A stretch of DNA of 34,097 nucleotides from positions 1 through 34,097 of the IMG/VR virus record IMGVR_UViG_3300016643_000099; one strand, written 5' to 3'. Position 1 is the stretch's first letter. Each line of letters begins with the position of its first letter. A program made the translations under genes and the position numbers. Positions 1,166-9,499 of this stretch are shown here, one piece after another. The notes under the pieces are model-generated. The model did not search any database. It was not told where the DNA came from and was given only the letters and a program-made list of their open reading frames with translations. The stretch is from a virus. Lineage: Duplodnaviria; Caudoviricetes.

Positions 1166-1553
1166 CCTCCTGCTGGCAGGGTGCTGTCGCAAGGCGGTCG
1201 AAGTCCGCACGACTACGGTGGTGCAGAAGGACAGCGTTATGATTGAGGTGCCTCACTTCACCGAGCTATTCATTGACAAGCCCTGCGATAGTGCGGGCAT
1301 ACTTCGGCAGTTCAGATTGATTGACAGTACCAAAACAAGCGTTCTAAGCGCATCAAATTATCGGGGTGGTATTCGCATACAGCTGCGCAGAGATACGGTC
1401 ATACAACGCACCTTAGAACGCGACACGGTAACGATTGAGCGTGTGGTGCCAACGACACCAAAGAAGCGCGGCAACCCTGCGGTGTTGCTGCTCACTGGCG
1501 CGTTGCTGGGCTTGTTAGTTAGTATTGTAATATTCAAATCCATATTCAAATGA
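1137..1553 (+). CDS. Putative unimolecular spanin (lipoprotein with C-terminal TM helix)
   Basis: From ATG 1137: MQKLSIVIFSLLLAGC lipobox, a beta-rich periplasmic part and C-terminal hydrophobic AVLLLTGALLGLLVSIVIF. It lies directly after the endolysin. Confidence 0.7.
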   Translation: MQKLSIVIFSLLLAGCCRKAVEVRTTTVVQKDSVMIEVPHFTELFIDKPCDSAGILRQFRLIDSTKTSVLSASNYRGGIRIQLRRDTVIQRTLERDTVTIERVVPTTPKKRGNPAVLLLTGALLGLLVSIVIFKSIFK

Positions 1554-1708
1554 AACAGGAGCAAATTCAGGGAATTATCCGTCACGCATTAAGCGCAATT
1601 GGCGGCTGGTTGGTGTACAAAGGCTACGTTGAAGCGGCTGACGTGGAGGCAATCATCGGCGTCATTTTGACGCTGATTGCGACCATTTGGTCGGTCGCCA
1701 GTAAGTAA
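1550..1708 (+). CDS. Small holin-like membrane protein (52 aa)
   Basis: Hand translation MKQEQIQGIIRHALSAIGGWLVYKGYVEAADVEAIIGVILTLIATIWSVASK has two hydrophobic segments and an ATGA overlap with the spanin. Confidence 0.7.
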   Translation: MKQEQIQGIIRHALSAIGGWLVYKGYVEAADVEAIIGVILTLIATIWSVASK

Positions 1709-1831
1709 CCGAATTTTCGCCGTTTGGTTGAGCAGGCCGAAAATCAAGGCTTGTCGGGAGGGTGTTTTTTATACTTTTTTTTCAAAAGTGCGTTTAGACG
1801 CTGGAAACGCAGAAAAAAAAATAAAAAAAAG

Positions 1832-1864
1832 TTTGGTTCATATATATATATGTATGTATATTTG
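1832..1864 (+). promoter_or_regulatory. Bacteroidota sigmaA-type early promoter
   Basis: TTTG (1832-1835), 21 nt, then TATATTTG (1857-1864) matches the -33/-7 consensus. An A-tract lies upstream, and the site precedes the first early gene. Confidence 0.8.
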
Positions 1865-1904
1865 CATATACCAAAACGGGAAAAACAAACTAAACCAACA
1901 CACC

Positions 1905-2078
1905 ATGAAACCAATTAGAACAGTTTACCTTGAGAGATGGGAAGGCAGCGAATCAGTAAAATACTGGTACTGGCTTGTAGATGCCAAAACAGGCGAGCCA
2001 ATTGATGGCGATAGGAGAAGATATGTTGCCGTAGAAATGGCGCAGCGCTGGGGACTCAAAATAATACCTAAAAAATAA
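1905..2078 (+). CDS. Hypothetical early protein (57 aa)
   Basis: ATG after an A/C-rich leader: MKPIRTVYLERWEG... The longer upstream extension in the ORF track runs through the promoter. Confidence 0.7.
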   Translation: MKPIRTVYLERWEGSESVKYWYWLVDAKTGEPIDGDRRRYVAVEMAQRWGLKIIPKK

Positions 2079-2142
2079 CCCTAACCAACCCGAGGGGCGC
2101 GGCTCACCAACGCGCATCTTTAACCCTCTAAACCCAAACCCA

Positions 2143-2415
2143 ATGAACAACCAAACCCAATTTTACCTTTTTACCGAAAAGGGCATCACCGACCGCTTTT
2201 TCTGCGGCAACATTTACGAGGCGCAAGCCAATGAGCCTATCATTTACCACGGATGCCCAATGACCTTTCAGGAATGCGCTGACAACAACCTGTGCAAGCA
2301 GTTCGCAACCCGCAAAGAGGCGAACCAGTACAGCCGCGTGCAGGAGCGTTTTTTGGAATTGAGCAACAACCACGCGCTCACAGCGATGCGCGAAGAAGAG
2401 TCCTACCTTTATTAA
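2143..2415 (+). CDS. Hypothetical early protein (90 aa)
   Basis: Starts in repeat 1 and stops on the TAA of repeat 2. Confidence 0.8.
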   Translation: MNNQTQFYLFTEKGITDRFFCGNIYEAQANEPIIYHGCPMTFQECADNNLCKQFATRKEANQYSRVQERFLELSNNHALTAMREEESYLY

Positions 2416-2434
2416 CCATCTAAACCCCAAACCA

Positions 2435-2590
2435 ATGAAACACACCTTCACCCTTGACGCGTGGTTCGCGCATATCCGCAAGCAACTGCGCACCACACCA
2501 ACACCGACACCTGCGGAAATCAAACAGCCACTGCGCTTCGACTGGGCCTTGTATGGCCGCATCCTTCAAGCTAAACACCTAACCAACTGA
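2435..2590 (+). CDS. Hypothetical early protein (51 aa)
   Basis: Hand translation MKHTFTLDAWFAHIRKQLR...AKHLTN. Starts in repeat 2. Confidence 0.7.
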   Translation: MKHTFTLDAWFAHIRKQLRTTPTPTPAEIKQPLRFDWALYGRILQAKHLTN

Positions 2591-2593
2591 CCA

Positions 2594-2821
2594 ATGAAAC
2601 TGACCAAAGACGAAGCATACATATTGGCCTGTGCGATACAGGATTCCAAATACAATTTAGTAGAAGCTTGCCAAAGCACTGACTCAAATCTGATGACTGC
2701 ATTGAATGATTTGGAAGAACGATTATTTGAGTTAGCAAAAGACCAAAGGCGAAATGGCAGAAAAAGCCATAATAGCTATACTGACATTTTGAAAAGATAT
2801 TCTAAAAAATCAACCATCTAA
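2594..2821 (+). CDS. Hypothetical early protein (75 aa), AT-rich
   Basis: From the ORF track. Stops inside repeat 3 and is visibly more AT-rich than its neighbours. Confidence 0.75.
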   Translation: MKLTKDEAYILACAIQDSKYNLVEACQSTDSNLMTALNDLEERLFELAKDQRRNGRKSHNSYTDILKRYSKKSTI

Positions 2822-2834
2822 ACCCCAAAAACCA

Positions 2835-3005
2835 ATGCAAGGTATCATCTTCAAAATCATCGGCGGCACACGCGCATACGAACTGCGGTTCACCGCAATG
2901 TCAAATCAACACGCGCAAACGGTAGCGCAAGAACTTCACACCAGCCTTGGCTTAATCGGCAGGCACTACGTTGAACTGGACAACGGCTTTTCTTTCACCA
3001 TTTAA
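2835..3005 (+). CDS. Hypothetical early protein (56 aa)
   Basis: Hand translation MQGIIFKIIGGTRAYELRF...FSFTI. Runs from repeat 3 to repeat 4. Confidence 0.72.
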   Translation: MQGIIFKIIGGTRAYELRFTAMSNQHAQTVAQELHTSLGLIGRHYVELDNGFSFTI

Positions 3006-3024
3006 CCATCTAAACCCAAACCCA

Positions 3025-3612
3025 ATGATTCAAATCACACCATTTCCCAAGTTGCACCTTGCCGCTTCAAGCGACAAGCTATACGAAAACATGAACTACA
3101 TTCAGTTCAAAACACTGCCAGCAGGCAACCAAGGCAGGGCAGGTATGTATATGGCCGCCACTGATGCGCACATATTAGCGTGGACACCTGTGGACTTCTA
3201 TATCGAAACGACTGACCTACCCGCTGAATTTTACATCCACAATGCTCAGTTCAAGAAGCTATGCCAAAGCAAACTTCAATACGTAACCTTCAACAAAGAA
3301 TCGCAGGTTGTGTTGCTTCACGACAAAAGTGGTAACGTTTATGATACGATGTTGTATATGAGTGCAGAAGCCTACAATCATATCCATAGATACCCTAACT
3401 ATGCCAGCATCATTCCAATTGATGCAACCGAACTGAACAACGGCCAATTCCACATCGATGCCAAGAGGCTATCAGATGCAATGCAGATTTTCGCGGCTGG
3501 TTGTATTACTATGAACTTCCGCACCGACAAACGCGCCTGCGTTATGAATTACAGCGACACCGAAGGCAAAGGTGAACTGCAAGTTATTGTAATGCCAATC
3601 ATTAAATTCTAA
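3025..3612 (+). CDS. Beta sliding-clamp (DnaN)-like protein, truncated (195 aa)
   Basis: AATDAHILA and RYPNYASIIP resemble the DnaN ATDGHRLA and xFPDYxxVIP motifs, and it ends in VIVMPI. Starts in repeat 4. Confidence 0.6.
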   Translation: MIQITPFPKLHLAASSDKLYENMNYIQFKTLPAGNQGRAGMYMAATDAHILAWTPVDFYIETTDLPAEFYIHNAQFKKLCQSKLQYVTFNKESQVVLLHDKSGNVYDTMLYMSAEAYNHIHRYPNYASIIPIDATELNNGQFHIDAKRLSDAMQIFAAGCITMNFRTDKRACVMNYSDTEGKGELQVIVMPIIKF

Positions 3613-3632
3613 CCATCTAAACCCCAAACCCA

Positions 3633-3830
3633 ATGACAACCCTACTTGACAAACTGACACCCGAAGCACGCGCTCAAATGGATTCGTGGCCTGCCGAAAA
3701 ACAGGAAAAAGCAATGTACTGGCTAAGCCAAAACGAGTACGTGTACGAAACGTACTACACCACCGCACGCTGGATTTGCGTTCACTTCCAACAGCCCATT
3801 GAAAACTTCTACGACCTATTCGCCGTATGA
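3633..3830 (+). CDS. Hypothetical early protein (65 aa)
   Basis: Starts in repeat 5. Confidence 0.75.
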   Translation: MTTLLDKLTPEARAQMDSWPAEKQEKAMYWLSQNEYVYETYYTTARWICVHFQQPIENFYDLFAV

Positions 3831-4000
3831 AAGCCCTGACCTACACCGCGTTCCTTCTCGCCACCTGCTTCGTGTGTGCCATACACACGGACGCAGGATG
3901 GTGGTACTTCACCGCCTATGCGCAAACGATTATATTTATTTATATATTTGCGCTTATAAACAAACACGATGAAAAACACAACCAAAACCAAAACCCCTAA
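3827..4000 (+). CDS. Small membrane protein (57 aa)
   Basis: Hand translation MKALTYTAFLLATCFVCAI..WWYFTAYAQTIIFIYIFALINK.. has two hydrophobic stretches and an ATGA overlap. Confidence 0.55.
   Translation: MKALTYTAFLLATCFVCAIHTDAGWWYFTAYAQTIIFIYIFALINKHDEKHNQNQNP
3943..3950 (+). promoter_or_regulatory. Bacteroidota -7 promoter box
   Basis: TATATTTG in an AT-rich patch, 18 nt before ATG 3969. Confidence 0.6.
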
Positions 4001-4133
4001 ACCGTTAATGCAACTTACTTCCGTTTACTGCGAGGCTGACACCCTCACCATATGCCGAGCGCGATTTGGCACGATTCGCGCCGCGTTGAATTACGCTGCC
4101 ACCCAAACACAAACTAAACCCTTAAATCAATGA
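3969..4133 (+). CDS. Small hypothetical protein (54 aa), possible regulator
   Basis: Hand translation MKNTTKTKTPKPLMQLTSVYCEADTLTICRARFGTIRAALNYAAT.. with an ATGA overlap to the next gene. Confidence 0.5.
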   Translation: MKNTTKTKTPKPLMQLTSVYCEADTLTICRARFGTIRAALNYAATQTQTKPLNQ

Positions 4134-4783
4134 CATTTACCGAATATCTTAAATCTATTAAAGCTTGCTCCGATGCAGTTGAGTGGGCATCAAATAAAAC
4201 GGTGGAGGAGGTTGTTGCTACCTGCCACCGAGGCGATTGGTTGCTGTGGCTCGCAAATAAATGCGAGATTGGACTGCAACCGCTAACACTTGCAAAGGGT
4301 CACTGCGCCAACACCGTCAGGCACTTGATGAAGGATGATGCGAGCCTTAAAGCAGTTGACACCGCGATTGCTTTTGGTGAAGGCAGGGCGAGCCGAAACG
4401 AGTTAGACATTGCCTATGCCGCTGCCGCTGTCGCTGACGCTGACGCTATCTATGTCGCTGACGCTATTACTGCCGCTGCCGCGGCCGCCGCCGCCGCCGC
4501 TGACGCTGTCTATGCCTCTGCCATTACCGCTGCCACAGCCGCTACCACTGCAGCTGCCTATGATGCTGCCTATGCCATTGCCGCTACCACTGCCGCTACC
4601 ACTGCCTCTGCCGCTGCCGCTGCCGATATGGCTGCCTATGCCGTTGCCTATGCCGTTGTTGCCGCTGACGCTGACGTTGCTCGTAATGCGAATCGATTGC
4701 AAACAGCTGACATTTGCCGAAAGTACATTGGCGACCTAATCATCCAAAAAGTTAATTTAATTCTAAACCCTTAAATCAATGAC
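4114..4783 (+). repeat. Exact 21-bp direct repeat CTAAACCCTTAAATCAATGAC
   Basis: Copies at 4114-4134 and 4763-4783 bracket the Ala-rich gene. Confidence 0.92.
4130..4774 (+). CDS. Ala-rich low-complexity phage protein
   Basis: Ordered ends (ACSDAVEW..RGDWLLWL; QTADICRKYI) surround a GCY-codon poly-Ala tract at ~4410-4680. Confidence 0.8.
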   Translation: MTFTEYLKSIKACSDAVEWASNKTVEEVVATCHRGDWLLWLANKCEIGLQPLTLAKGHCANTVRHLMKDDASLKAVDTAIAFGEGRASRNELDIAYAAAAVADADAIYVADAITAAAAAAAAAADAVYASAITAATAATTAAAYDAAYAIAATTAATTASAAAAADMAAYAVAYAVVAADADVARNANRLQTADICRKYIGDLIIQKVNLILNP

Positions 4784-5306
4784 CAACTTAAAAACAATCA
4801 ACATCAAGGGCAAACCTTACGTTGAAGTCGTGGAGCGCCTGCGGGTGTTCCGCGAGAGCTTCGCTGATTATAGCCTGACCACCGAAGTGGTGCAACTGAC
4901 ACCCGACTTCGTAGTGCTGAATGCCATCATCACCGACCCGACTGGCCGCATCGTTGCGACTGGACTGGCGCAGGAAGACCGCACCAGTTCAATGATTAAC
5001 AAGACGTCTTATGTCGAGAACTGCGAGAGCAGTGCGTGGGGTCGTGCGCTTGGAAACTTCGGCATCGGGTTGCAAGCCGCAATCGCTTCCGCTGACGAAA
5101 TGCAAATGGCGCTTGCCAAGGAACAGGCAGGCATCAACCTGCAACCATCGCAACAGGTAATGGACAACCTGTTCGCTGAGTACAACAGCTTGCTGGCGCA
5201 GTTGCCAGAGCAATTTCAAAAAAACCTGCAAAGCAACCCGAGCTGGAATTTGGCTAAAATTCAGAAGGGCATCATCTACCTCAAACAACAACTAAACAAC
5301 AACTAA
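4779..5306 (+). CDS. Single-strand annealing recombinase (Sak/Rad52/ERF-like)
   Basis: IKGKPYVEVVERL..ATGLAQE..NKTSYVENCESSAWGRALG.GIG signature. Confidence 0.72.
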   Translation: MTNLKTINIKGKPYVEVVERLRVFRESFADYSLTTEVVQLTPDFVVLNAIITDPTGRIVATGLAQEDRTSSMINKTSYVENCESSAWGRALGNFGIGLQAAIASADEMQMALAKEQAGINLQPSQQVMDNLFAEYNSLLAQLPEQFQKNLQSNPSWNLAKIQKGIIYLKQQLNNN

Positions 5307-5322
5307 ACAACAACTAAACAAC
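5283..5322 (+). repeat. Tandem repeat (AAACAACAACT) x3.6
   Basis: Spans the SSAP stop codon and the leader of the next gene. Confidence 0.85.
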
Positions 5323-5330
5323 CTCAACCA

Positions 5331-5603
5331 ATGACACCCTTAGAATTTATCGACACCCTTCCCGCCCATCGCCGCACATCCCTGCGGCAGATGGCCGAAG
5401 AACTGAACAAAGCGGGCATCCTCACACCACGGGGCTACCAGTGGACAGCACCCGCCGTATTCGCGGAGTTTCGCCGCAACGAAATAGAATACGTGACCCT
5501 GCCTAAACGGAAGCAGAATCTTGTGACAAAAGCAATGCGCAATTTGTCACGTGCCGAACACCTTATCCGTTCATCCGTCAAAATGCTACAAACCAATGGC
5601 TAA
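5331..5603 (+). CDS. Stand-alone recombinase-like HTH DNA-binding protein
   Basis: SLRQMAEELNKAGILTPRGYQWT resembles the DNA-binding recombinase domain of large serine recombinases. No catalytic domain is present. Confidence 0.6.
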   Translation: MTPLEFIDTLPAHRRTSLRQMAEELNKAGILTPRGYQWTAPAVFAEFRRNEIEYVTLPKRKQNLVTKAMRNLSRAEHLIRSSVKMLQTNG

Positions 5604-6033
5604 CCTGCAACTACCCGCTAACATCAGCAAGGCTGACATTAGCGAATTTATCGATTCTGTGACCACGGAAGTGCTGGGTGGCAACATATCACCACTCAGC
5701 GTTCACGTGCGCTGTAAAGCGCTGATAAAGGCCTTAGAAGGCATCCTTGAAAACACGCAGGATATTGCGATTGACGAGGCGTACCACTACAAGGGCGCGT
5801 TCAACATCGAAGGTGCGAACGTGGTGCTGAGGGAAGGACACGGAATGCCTGACTTTTCGCAGGACGAATTATGCAATAACCTCACCGTGCAACTGAAGGC
5901 GCGACAGGAACTGCTCAAGCAAGCGTTTCGGATGAACGGCAAGGCTGTGATTGTTGACCCTGACACTGGCGAGGTCGTGCCAGTGATGCCGATGAAAGCA
6001 AACAAAACCACCTTAACCGTTACCTTCAAATGA
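5596..6033 (+). CDS. Hypothetical phage protein
   Basis: ATG 5596 (MANLQLPANISK..) and C-terminal DPDTGEVVP, in the recombination module. Confidence 0.75.
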   Translation: MANLQLPANISKADISEFIDSVTTEVLGGNISPLSVHVRCKALIKALEGILENTQDIAIDEAYHYKGAFNIEGANVVLREGHGMPDFSQDELCNNLTVQLKARQELLKQAFRMNGKAVIVDPDTGEVVPVMPMKANKTTLTVTFK

Positions 6034-6077
6034 CAATTCACGCCAAATCAGGAAGTAAATTCACGCCAAAACAAGAA

Positions 6078-6365
6078 ATGACAATGAGCAATCAAATCTA
6101 TTTCGACCACAACATCGACACCTTCGCTGGAGGGTTTCCCGTTATCTTCCACTTTGACGCACGCGACTGGTTCGAGGGCGAAGGTCAGATTCCTGAGCTA
6201 AATTACATCGACCTTGATTACGATGAAAGGCAGACCTCCTTAATCAAGCAATGCCTTGATTCGCTGAACAGCGATGACAACACGCTAATCTATGCGATGC
6301 AAGAAGCGGCTGACAAGTTTAAGCACCAACTGGACTGGGAGAAAGCACTGGATTACGGCATTTAA
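6078..6365 (+). CDS. Hypothetical acidic protein, paralog A
   Basis: AGGFPV.F..DWF..IP..Y.DL..D.RQ..AMQEAAD. The start could be 6030, 6078 or 6084. Confidence 0.72.
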   Translation: MTMSNQIYFDHNIDTFAGGFPVIFHFDARDWFEGEGQIPELNYIDLDYDERQTSLIKQCLDSLNSDDNTLIYAMQEAADKFKHQLDWEKALDYGI

Positions 6366-6385
6366 TTTTTGCAAGAAACAGGACT

Positions 6386-6688
6386 ATGAACGACATCCAA
6401 TTTATCTTAAAAATTGAAACTGAAGCAGGTGGCTTCAGCGTACCTATGTACTTTTCCGCACACGAATGGTTTGACGATAACAGCGGGGACATCCCCGCTG
6501 TTCACTACACCGACCTCGGATTCGACAATCGGCAGAAGACAATCATCCACGACTTTATCGGACAGGTAGGCACCGAACACGATGGCGGCTTGCTGATTGC
6601 TATGCAGGAAGCGGCGGATTGGTGGAAGAGCCAGCAAGGTTCTGATTCAGTGTGGCACGATTACTTTACTAATGATTATAATGCTTAA
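6386..6688 (+). CDS. Hypothetical acidic protein, paralog B
   Basis: AGGFSV..F..EWF..IP..Y.DL..D.RQ..AMQEAAD. Confidence 0.75.
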   Translation: MNDIQFILKIETEAGGFSVPMYFSAHEWFDDNSGDIPAVHYTDLGFDNRQKTIIHDFIGQVGTEHDGGLLIAMQEAADWWKSQQGSDSVWHDYFTNDYNA

Positions 6689-6716
6689 TTTTACAAACCT
6701 TAAACCAAATCAAGTT

Positions 6717-6980
6717 ATGAGCAACTATCAAAAGAAAGACGGTGACATCAGCGTCTTCACTAACCAATCAGCCAACGCCAACGCACCGCGATGGAAGGGC
6801 AATCTGCTACTGAACGGGCAGGAATACAGCGTGTCGCTGTGGGTCAAGAGCGGCGCGAAGGGCGAGTTCCTTGCGGGCAGTGTACAGCCGAAGCAGAGCT
6901 ATTCGGACAAACAACCCGACACCGCACCCTATGTTTACAACGCACCTAAACCCGATACCAATGGAGACCTACCATTCTAA
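6717..6980 (+). CDS. Phage single-stranded DNA-binding protein (DUF736-like)
   Basis: P.WKG.L..NGQEY.VSLW..GEFLAGSV core with a C-terminal DLPF tail. Confidence 0.72.
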   Translation: MSNYQKKDGDISVFTNQSANANAPRWKGNLLLNGQEYSVSLWVKSGAKGEFLAGSVQPKQSYSDKQPDTAPYVYNAPKPDTNGDLPF

Positions 6981-7173
6981 TTACGGCAACACGACCCTAA
7001 GCCTGCAAATCGACGGGCGCACCTGCACGATTGCGCTGGAAGGCAACGAGCATTCCGCTGGCGATATCATAGAAGCCTTTGTCGGCCTGATGGTAGGGCA
7101 AACCTTCACCGAACCAACTTGCTACAAGGCGATGAGGAAATTGGCTGAGGAAAGGTACAGGGAGGACGATTAG
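6961..7173 (+). CDS. Hypothetical protein (70 aa)
   Basis: ATG 6961 METYHSNYG.., overlapping the SSB end. Confidence 0.6.
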   Translation: METYHSNYGNTTLSLQIDGRTCTIALEGNEHSAGDIIEAFVGLMVGQTFTEPTCYKAMRKLAEERYREDD

Positions 7174-7187
7174 TCCCAAATATTGCC

Positions 7188-7195
7188 TATATTTG
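7188..7195 (+). promoter_or_regulatory. Bacteroidota -7 promoter box for the primase leader
   Basis: Intergenic TATATTTG. Confidence 0.7.
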
Positions 7196-7261
7196 TGACA
7201 GAGTTAGCACTGTGATACCAGCGCATTGTTGACGTAAGACGAGCCGCGTTCCATTTGGCTT

Positions 7262-7295
7262 GCCCCGACAGCTGGTATCTGTCGGGGCTTTTTTT
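7262..7295 (+). terminator. Intrinsic terminator/attenuator in the primase leader
   Basis: GCCCCGACAG-CTGGTAT-CTGTCGGGGC perfect 10-bp stem followed by T7. Confidence 0.85.
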
Positions 7296-7312
7296 ACCTC
7301 TAAATTTTAACG

Positions 7313-9499
7313 ATGATAAAAGTATCCGTATTTGCCAACAACAAAGCCGTAACGCCTTCGCAGACAAGCGACCTCAACACCTTGCTGATGAACATCAAGG
7401 ATGGAAGGTGGCAAGACCAAGTGCTGGCCTATCGAACAGGCAAAGGCACAAAAGACAACTTACCTGCATTCACCACAAGTGGCGAGTTTAAGCAACGCAA
7501 AAAAGAACACCTGATTGAACATAGTGGCTACATCGCAATCGACATTGATGCCAATGACAATCCGAACATCAAAGAAGGCATCGCCAAGCTACGCGAAGAC
7601 CCTGCACTGTACGCGATGTTCGTAAGCGTTGGCGGTCAAGGCTACTGCGCTATATTTCCCATCGACCCGAACCGACACCTTGACGCTTACCTTGCGCTTG
7701 AAAAGCGACTTGCTGATAGGTACGAACTAATTTGCGACAAAGCGTGCAAGGACGTGGCACGCCTGCGGTTCGTCAGCTATGACCCTGACCTGTACCAAGC
7801 CGCGAAAAAGATACCACGATTTAAGGACTACCTGCCGAAGCCATCAGCACCAATGCGGGCGCAGTATGTAGGTAACGAAAGCGATAGCAACTATATGCTT
7901 TCGCAAATCATCAGCCGAGGCATAAACCTATGCGAAGGGTATCACGACTGGTATCGCGTTGGCTGTGCCATCATCAACAAGTACAAAGATTCACCCGAAG
8001 GCAGGGCAATGTTTCACTCGCTGTCATCAGTCAGCGCAAAGTACGACAGCCGCAAATGCGACAGCAAATACGATGAACTGCTGAAATCAACACGCGGAGA
8101 AATCACCTTCGCAACCCTTGTCTATATGGCCAAGTGCGCAGGTGTTGAGGTCCAAACGCCTGAAACAAAGCGCATCGAAAAGCAAGCACTGGTCAACCGC
8201 TCACGCGTTGGTGTCGCTGGTGGATTCAAGTCAACCGATGATGCGCGAAATGAAACAATCGCATACCTAACCGAAGTCGAAGGACTGGAAGACGTGGAAG
8301 ACCGCGTCACCCAAGCCTTTGCACTGCAAGAAAAAGACGTAGAAAAGCCATCAGCAGATGAGATGCTGGACGCGCTCAAAACCTTTATCGCAGGTTTCAA
8401 CATCAAGATGAACGATGTGACCAGAAACTACGAGAAGGCAGGCGAGCCATTGACCGACCGTGAATTGAACACCATCTACCTGCAAGCCGTTCACGCCTAC
8501 GGCTCAAAGGTCAAAAAGCAACTGGTGTTCGACATCATTGATTCTGAAAATACAGCGCGCTATAATCCATTCGTGGACTTCTTTGCGGCAAATGCATCAA
8601 AGCGACCGAAGGGCCTTATCGATGAGTTAATTACCTGCATTGATAGCAACAACCACGATATTTTTTACATCGCAAACTTTTTACGAAAGTGGCTTTTGAG
8701 CATTATCGGGTCAATGCACTACGACTATTCAGTCATTTGTTTGGTGCTGACAGGCGCGCAAGGCATCGGCAAAACAAACTTTTTTCGACAACTACTGCCT
8801 GATGAACTGCAAGGCTACTACGGTGAAACAAAACTTGACGCGGGTAAGGATGATGAGATTCTGATGTGCAAAAAAATAATCCTATGCGATGATGAGTTTG
8901 GTGGAAAGTCAAAGCAGGAGGCGAAAAAGTTGAAGGAGTTGTCAAGTCGTAAAACGTTTACGATTCGCAAGCCTTATGGAAAAGTACACGAGGAACTGCG
9001 GAGGTTGGCCGTGCTGTGCGGCACAAGTAACGAATCCGAAATCATCAATGACCCAACAGGAAACCGCCGCATCATTCCAATTGATGTGATTAAAATCGAC
9101 TGGGAGAAGTACGAAGCGATTGACAAAACCGAACTATTGGTTGAACTATACAACGAGTGGAGAGCAAACCCACAAGGCTGGTATTTGAGTGGTCAAGATA
9201 TTGCAGTGCTGAACCAAAACACAATGGGGAACGAACAGCCAAGTTTAGAGCGCGAGTTAATTGTCAAGTACTTTGAGCCGCCAAGTCAGTCGTGTACAAA
9301 CTGGATGACCACCAGTGCAATCAAAGTTTACATTGATATGAACTCACGCCAATCAATGAGCCTGCACAAACTTGGACTGCAACTTCGAGCGTTGGGATAT
9401 AACCAAAAAAGCCGCAGGGATGGCAATTGCGCAGTTCCTGTGAGGAAATGGCAAATCAATGTGGGTGAACTTCCAGCACAACATTCGCCTCTTTTGTAG
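7313..9499 (+). CDS. Primase-helicase (BT4734/VirE N-term + PriCT-2 + VapE/VirE P-loop)
   Basis: LPAFTTSG..IAIDID..FVSVGGQG..DVARLRFVSYDP, YHDWYRVG, Walker A GAQGIGKT, CDDE and DPTGNRR. Confidence 0.9.
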   Translation: MIKVSVFANNKAVTPSQTSDLNTLLMNIKDGRWQDQVLAYRTGKGTKDNLPAFTTSGEFKQRKKEHLIEHSGYIAIDIDANDNPNIKEGIAKLREDPALYAMFVSVGGQGYCAIFPIDPNRHLDAYLALEKRLADRYELICDKACKDVARLRFVSYDPDLYQAAKKIPRFKDYLPKPSAPMRAQYVGNESDSNYMLSQIISRGINLCEGYHDWYRVGCAIINKYKDSPEGRAMFHSLSSVSAKYDSRKCDSKYDELLKSTRGEITFATLVYMAKCAGVEVQTPETKRIEKQALVNRSRVGVAGGFKSTDDARNETIAYLTEVEGLEDVEDRVTQAFALQEKDVEKPSADEMLDALKTFIAGFNIKMNDVTRNYEKAGEPLTDRELNTIYLQAVHAYGSKVKKQLVFDIIDSENTARYNPFVDFFAANASKRPKGLIDELITCIDSNNHDIFYIANFLRKWLLSIIGSMHYDYSVICLVLTGAQGIGKTNFFRQLLPDELQGYYGETKLDAGKDDEILMCKKIILCDDEFGGKSKQEAKKLKELSSRKTFTIRKPYGKVHEELRRLAVLCGTSNESEIINDPTGNRRIIPIDVIKIDWEKYEAIDKTELLVELYNEWRANPQGWYLSGQDIAVLNQNTMGNEQPSLERELIVKYFEPPSQSCTNWMTTSAIKVYIDMNSRQSMSLHKLGLQLRALGYNQKSRRDGNCAVPVRKWQINVGELPAQHSPLL

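Follow-up and report, generated by a model that had tools for sequence, protein, structure and literature searches.

Small early genes of a freshwater phage are joined by a short, promoterless linker that supplies the stop codon of the gene before it and likely forms the start signal of the gene after it. The linker marks the places where gene content differs between related phages, and we consider it probable that these differences arose by crossover at its short core. The window, that is, the whole stretch of DNA analysed, is a virus record of 34,097 bases with a CheckV completeness of 100%, classed as linear; PHROG matches in the window include terminase, primase, amidase and capsid-like genes. 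Its origin is freshwater: among the matches listed, 18 DNA runs, all metagenomes, contain 0.46-0.99 of the sampled phage words, and two RNA runs contain 5-7% of them.

The array is the start of an early operon and is headed by a predicted promoter (Table 1), whose -33 box TTTG and spacing we take to be those of a Bacteroidota sigmaA promoter. On the + strand of the first 8 kb, TAnnTTTG occurs at 1857, 3943 and 7188 only, and never within a linker. This motif is described as the -7 box of Bacteroidota sigmaA promoters (PMC9723704), from which we infer a Bacteroidota host. A scan of genome contigs for the long linker gave nine matches, in MAGs of mixed phyla, and assigned no host; among GenBank phages, the capsid protein had no match and Sak matches were distant only. 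A second TATATTTG box is located at 3943 (window 3943-4133). The short ORF after it (3969-4133), which is conserved and overlaps with a GC hairpin near 4055-4090, may represent a structured leader instead of coding for a protein. A putative holin upstream of the array (52 aa, membrane-like; window 1550-1708) is missing at that position in most relatives.

The sequence-only reading had described five ~25-bp copies of a repeat, each closing with a gene's ATG, and this description holds. When the genome was searched with TAACCATCTAAACCC at up to three mismatches, six matches were found, five of them on the + strand at 2121, 2413, 2811, 3003 and 3610 with 0-1 mismatch; 0.59 matches were expected, and the maximum in 100 shuffles was three. 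The corresponding ORFs start at 2143, 2435, 2835, 3025 and 3633. It was equally right that the repeats supply the upstream stop (the first TAA at 2413, 3003 and 3610, an inner TAA at 2819), that the enclosed genes are unrelated, as clustering puts them into separate families, and that the gene at 2594-2821 is AT-rich, with a GC content of 35.5% where the genome has 50.4%. The repeats lie between early genes as linkers rich in A and C, G-free before the ATG in all five copies; A/C linkers of a looser kind continue through the early region up to ~7000. The sequence-only reading had overlooked these looser linkers, the 70-nt long linker with its structured element, the degenerate sixth copy and the second repeat pair on either side of the gene at 4130-4774. 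The product of the gene at 3025-3612 is likely clamp-like, its PHROG matches being in conflict (phrog_3007, RusA-like, E 1e-7; phrog_947, processivity factor, E 0.004). Further downstream, an adjacent pair of paralogous genes (111 and 100 aa; window 6030-6688) is single in most relatives.

Table 1. Features of the early region, in window coordinates
Feature	Position	Strand	Remark
Bacteroidota-type sigmaA promoter, TTTG - 21 nt - TATATTTG	1832..1864	+	predicted; heads array; region conserved in relatives
Gene J, 57 aa, first-slot cassette	1905..2078	+	function unknown
Long linker: TAA, short A/C stretch, structured element, repeat 1, ATG	2076..2145	+	in 27/82 junction types
H-type pseudoknot, 25 nt	2091..2115	+	predicted; stem 1 2092-2094/2103-2105; stem 2 2097-2101/2111-2115
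Repeat 1, short linker	2121..2145	+	3' end of 70-nt long linker; hybrid with repeat 3 in L006, L087
Gene A, 90-aa cassette	2143..2415	+	function unknown
Repeat 2	2413..2437	+	fills whole spacer; first TAA is stop of gene A
Gene B, 51 aa	2435..2590	+	found in most relatives
Degenerate sixth linker copy	2580..2596	+	encodes final codons of gene B; joints at 2575, 2588
Gene C, 75 aa	2594..2821	+	35.5% GC; homologues also before SSB gene in L009, L010, L154
Repeat 3	2811..2837	+	inner TAA is stop of gene C
Gene G, 56-aa cassette	2835..3005	+	
Repeat 4	3003..3027	+	first TAA is upstream stop
195-aa cassette, likely sliding-clamp (DNA pol III beta)-like	3025..3612	+	ESM Atlas feature score 0.96
Repeat 5	3610..3635	+	first TAA is upstream stop
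Gene T, 65 aa	3633..3830	+	conserved end of array
Second repeat family, left copy, 21 nt	4114..4134	+	identical to 4763-4783
Ala-rich cassette, 214 aa	4130..4774	+	of 68 loci, 9 have the slot filled and 59 have it empty
Second repeat family, right copy	4763..4783	+	
Rad52/Sak-fold protein, likely single-strand annealase	4779..5306	+	predicted; AlphaFold mean pLDDT 76.8

Four scans, three by homology and one by pattern, yielded relatives at 179 loci; once loci with array DNA fully covered by another locus had been dropped, 81 arrays were left, the window among them. The 42 promoter-bearing loci gave 35 called gene sets, a number slightly too high because the gene caller missed genes (it skipped some in at least four junction types and overlooked gene B in L007 and L088). 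Forty arrays that end in a T-type gene hold 36 families, 19 of which were found in the first slot. Gene Q is preceded by 21 different genes, and ten different genes follow gene B. Two relatives, L006 (98-99% identical) and L087 (92-99.6% across the flanks of the array), lack window 2146-2811 and with it genes A, B and C; their junction is a hybrid made of the 5' half of repeat 1 and the 3' half of repeat 3. The earlier reading had proposed that related genomes be aligned and would have settled for a translation signal if gene content were fixed or breakpoints fell elsewhere; content varies, and the gain and loss differences sit in the repeat.

After removal of ten flanking or miscalled families, the junction set comprised 259 junctions of 82 types. 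By a loose rule for the short linker (gap <=39 nt and no more than one G among the final 16 nt), 71/82 types consist of linker only, 44 with the short linker and 27 with the long plus the short linker. Four of the 11 others are caller misses, and seven represent three real non-linker events: a c24 block (L009/L135), a gene remnant (L167/L176) and a RadC block (L174). The last of these, at L174:2325-3521, is a foreign block after gene B, with a RadC-like JAB gene, a 233-aa gene and T-rich TTTTAAACCC repeats between them. The core CTAAACCC was matched at 7-8/8 positions in 59/82 junction types, compared to 0/33 core genes, and TAA is the stop in 41/43 upstream families, compared to 13/33 core genes. 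Sequence linked to the upstream gene extends to the TAA, sequence linked to the downstream gene begins at the ATG, and the switch between them lies inside the linker. For one and the same gene pair the spacer comes in steps, of 4, 11-12 or 20 nt between the clamp-like gene and T and of 4-5 or 11-13 nt between B and T, a pattern that fits exchange in more than one register of a word with internal repeats. Linker copies are exactly identical over 6-21 nt; repeats 1 and 3 share 9 nt.

Inserted genes carry the linker on both sides. Gene C in one relative (L115) has the B-to-T linker on both flanks, and the Ala-rich slot has two identical 21-nt linkers when filled and one in its commonest empty form. 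In L100 a tandem second copy of the Ala-rich gene is present, identical at 320/330 nt, for which chimeric assembly is possible. Homologues of gene C and of the Ala-rich gene also occupy other early-region slots; those of the latter lie in at least three slots and are present twice in L009, L100 and L158. The Ala-rich gene also contains a 12-nt tandem repeat tract (window 4399-4680) whose length varies among relatives (proteins of 163-214 aa). Exchange probably reaches beyond this lineage as well. In a comparison with a second lineage, scored by the best pair among up to 12 by 12, core genes reached 62-69% identity and cassettes f112 and f88 reached 96% and 94%; eight other first-slot families common to both lineages ranged from 57% to 79%. 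Beyond the ATG and TAA of f112 and f88, each lineage has its own linkers.

The claim that the linker is a portable translation-initiation unit fits the sequence in part. With folding energies of 0 to -1.5 kcal/mol the short linkers are unfolded, and A is found at -12 and at -13 in 66/82 junction types each and at -6 in 52/82. Adenines at -3, -6, -12 and -13 enhance initiation in Flavobacterium johnsoniae (PMC6847099). Position -3, however, is C in 55/82 junction types and not the favoured A, which speaks against the claim. Positions -12/-13 are often filled by AA from the stop codon and the adenine after it. Judged by these positions, the linker likely forms the translation start signal of the next gene. 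The start of the major capsid gene is A-rich but different from the linker, so translation alone would have no need for the exact linker word.

We propose that one word serves both as stop and as start signal: a TAA followed by A would set adenines at -12/-13, where Bacteroidota ribosomes favour them. Exchange would take place at microhomologies of 6-21 nt, either through annealing by the Rad52/Sak-fold protein or through template switching during replication. Such exchange would delete or duplicate genes within a genome and swap genes between co-infecting phages. Since any crossover would rebuild both stop and start signal, most products would be viable and expressed from the single upstream promoter. 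Gene order would mostly be kept because exchange takes place between collinear arrays and not at a fixed entry site. Crossover is likely on the evidence of the junctions, as distinct from direct observation.

The protein at 4779 had been called a Sak/ERF-like annealase. Its structural model supports a Rad52/Sak-type fold at modest E-values: the top Foldseek matches were Mgm101 and RAD52 (E 7e-5 to 7e-4, TM ~0.35-0.4), with 80a-Sak at E 4e-3, and the protein had no Pfam match. Slippage works on short, close repeats. The 6-21 nt shared by linker copies are shorter than the minimum of 23-27 bp at which Red-beta is said to be efficient (PMC3945230), and the annealase is therefore one candidate beside replication slippage. 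It may act here; template switching is equally plausible.

Independent samples contain the same kind of joint. Contigs of eight runs gave ten distinct joints within 1900-3900, eight from linker to linker and two within gene T. Linker joints were found in 7/8 runs, from four studies; run X1, from which this DNA may have come, had none and is not counted as support. The best-supported joints (2132-2824, 2588-3623 and 2575-2999) have short sides of 40-53 letters and depths up to 270. The other five linker joints are weaker, four having short sides of 25-30 letters and one being given with no side length, and all aligned at 90-92% likeness, where other organisms are possible. A search for repeat-to-repeat deletions or circles had been suggested; linker-to-linker joints are present, whereas no backward (circle) joint at the linkers was seen in these contigs, which drop rare forms.

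It is possible, though unlikely, that the linker serves purely as a strong signal for translation, with rare illegitimate joins from which selection keeps whole genes and an intact start. Because the linker fills the whole spacer, breakpoints within it are also expected from selection for whole genes; the linker sequence fits a Bacteroidota start region, and the exact identity between copies is short. Scarred or fused junctions do occur, as in L179:296-577, where the start of a T-type gene is fused in-frame to the end of family c6 with the breakpoint inside coding sequence, but scar-free hybrid linkers prevail among the junction types. (L179 also carries a second copy of gene B.) The looser downstream A/C linkers border variable genes too, and they match the core at 7-8/8 in 11/65 junction types. 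Flanking of inserted genes by duplicated linkers, a tandem duplication bounded by the repeat and the different A-rich start of the capsid gene argue against this account.

Integrons hold a row of promoterless genes behind one promoter, with most diversity near the promoter, and rely on a tyrosine integrase and palindromic attC sites. The sequence-only reading had called the array integron-like, and a dedicated phage or host recombinase that cuts the linker and moves cassettes as circles would be in keeping with the promoterless genes behind one promoter, a resemblance read from the DNA alone, with the diversity of the first slot (19 families in the 40 arrays), with a few order changes and relocations, and with one weak domain match. 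The latter lies in a stand-alone 90-aa protein at 5331-5603, which scored below threshold for PF07508 (Recombinase DNA-binding; E 0.002, 18.6 bits against a cut-off of 21.1) and for HTH_62 in a Pfam scan that covered the early ORFs of the window. Yet PF00589, the tyrosine integrase IntI, had 0 matches in the genome (the control was positive 14/14), no palindromic attC-like sites lie between cassettes, the short linker being asymmetric and unfolded, and both the linker sequence and the register of crossover vary. The free shuffling that had been claimed proved rare: only 2/190 ordered family pairs were seen in both orders, one of them only in the fused L179, and a single three-way order conflict involves A, c21, and I or c17. 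With order kept in 188/190 pairs, gain, loss and replacement dominate. Since identity is limited to 6-21 nt, order is kept, and neither a circle joint in contigs of the eight runs nor a tyrosine integrase was found, the array is not an integron, and we regard a dedicated recombinase as very unlikely.

Chimeras formed at repeats during assembly or library preparation are extremely improbable as the source of the variant arrays: the relatives are all metagenome assemblies and L133 and L150 hold odd tandem blocks, but exact repeats of <=21 nt do not reach the word length of 31 letters used in the run index, identical joints recur across samples and studies at depths up to 270, and many arrays hold genes absent from this genome. 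The tandem blocks, in L133 after ~6000 and in L150, consist of early genes and reflect duplication or an assembly artefact.

The long linker (70 nt here; 60-70 nt form) follows many unrelated genes and contains a predicted pseudoknot. Among 58 distinct copies, 95% of cells pair, the search pattern having fixed six of the nine pairs, and the outermost pair holds in 37/58. Two-sided changes were counted in 42 cells, compared to 16.0 +/- 3.2 in shuffles, none of 500 being as high. The pattern is estimated to occur in ~300 viral stretches. Of 114 distinct contexts, 110 show an ORF start no more than 70 nt away, and 94 of these have a G-poor leader. Further pseudoknot loci (L194-L313) lie between stop and start, some in other lineages with SD-type starts. 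Rfam gave nothing credible for 1500-7500 or 2050-2170. A simple hairpin, GAGGG with CCCUC of repeat 1, gives the best fold of a single strand in the window (-15.5 kcal/mol, z -2.5); it was rejected in favour of the pseudoknot because its outer stem had zero compensatory changes in 28 copies.

Among known systems, the array is a minimal, promoterless variant of the PeSL (promoter-early stem-loop) cassettes of T4-type phages (Arbiol 2010, PMC2839356; Comeau 2014, PMC4122927). In the available text of these papers, PeSL is likewise a repeated intergenic regulatory unit that runs from the upstream stop to the next start and borders orphan early genes; indels between relatives at the element leave one chimeric copy, a feature also found here; no dedicated recombinase is described, and the authors already drew the integron comparison. 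PeSLs measure ~100 bp and include a promoter, a terminator stem-loop and a Shine-Dalgarno site of their own, and mini-circles have been demonstrated for them, whereas the linker is 4-25 nt long (long form 60-70), is promoterless, has no Shine-Dalgarno site, shares 6-21 exact nt and left no circle in the contigs of eight runs, which drop rare forms. A promoter in each repeat and a terminator-like stem-loop are absent here, only the long linker being structured.

The SAS/ESAS of cluster K mycobacteriophages (PMC3203893) are short asymmetric repeats before the ATG of non-structural genes; as outlined in the available part of that paper, they keep one orientation, sometimes hold the upstream stop and, in the extended form, add an upstream element. 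A one-orientation repeat abutting the ATG of non-structural genes is found here too, but SAS has a Shine-Dalgarno core and was proposed for translation, whereas the linker is G-free and tied to gene gain and loss. The Botstein/Campbell 'linker' model and the T-even IP-locus repeats, as summarised in PMC2839356, resemble the array in that conserved flanking sequence places and expresses an exchanged module; in contrast, single genes are exchanged here at microhomology scale in a 34-kb phage. Among the open-literature listings searched, no account of the present linker was found. Whether phage mosaicism arises from short linkers or from random joins plus selection is an open question (PMC3945230), for which the array provides a sharply mapped natural case; the two models are separable here because the site is small enough to recode. 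The array further points to a way in which a single A-rich word could serve as stop, start signal and joint in hosts that lack Shine-Dalgarno sites.

Host-takeover or anti-defence genes had been expected among the cassettes. No PADLOC, Pfam or PHROG match points that way, and cargo of this kind is a guess from position. PADLOC matched 0/14 window proteins, a weak test because it models defence systems. For 65 representatives of the cassette pool, Pfam matched 1/65 (the RadC-like gene of one relative) and PHROGs 3/65; 62/65 matched neither, and one more matched only a PHROG of unknown function. Dozens of small unnamed early genes are flagged as candidates for counter-defence screening. A still broader picture, of a large freshwater phage group with recombinase-free cassettes whose site is stop plus start signal (~8-nt core), a mobile 25-nt pseudoknot marking the most-exchanged slot, cassettes moving as circles between distant lineages and new counter-defence cargo, we hold to be distinctly unlikely in full. 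In L019/L020, an unrelated phage that is AT-rich and whose Sak gene is 65% identical, many small genes are likewise preceded by repeated A-rich stop-start spacers, of a kind peculiar to that phage.
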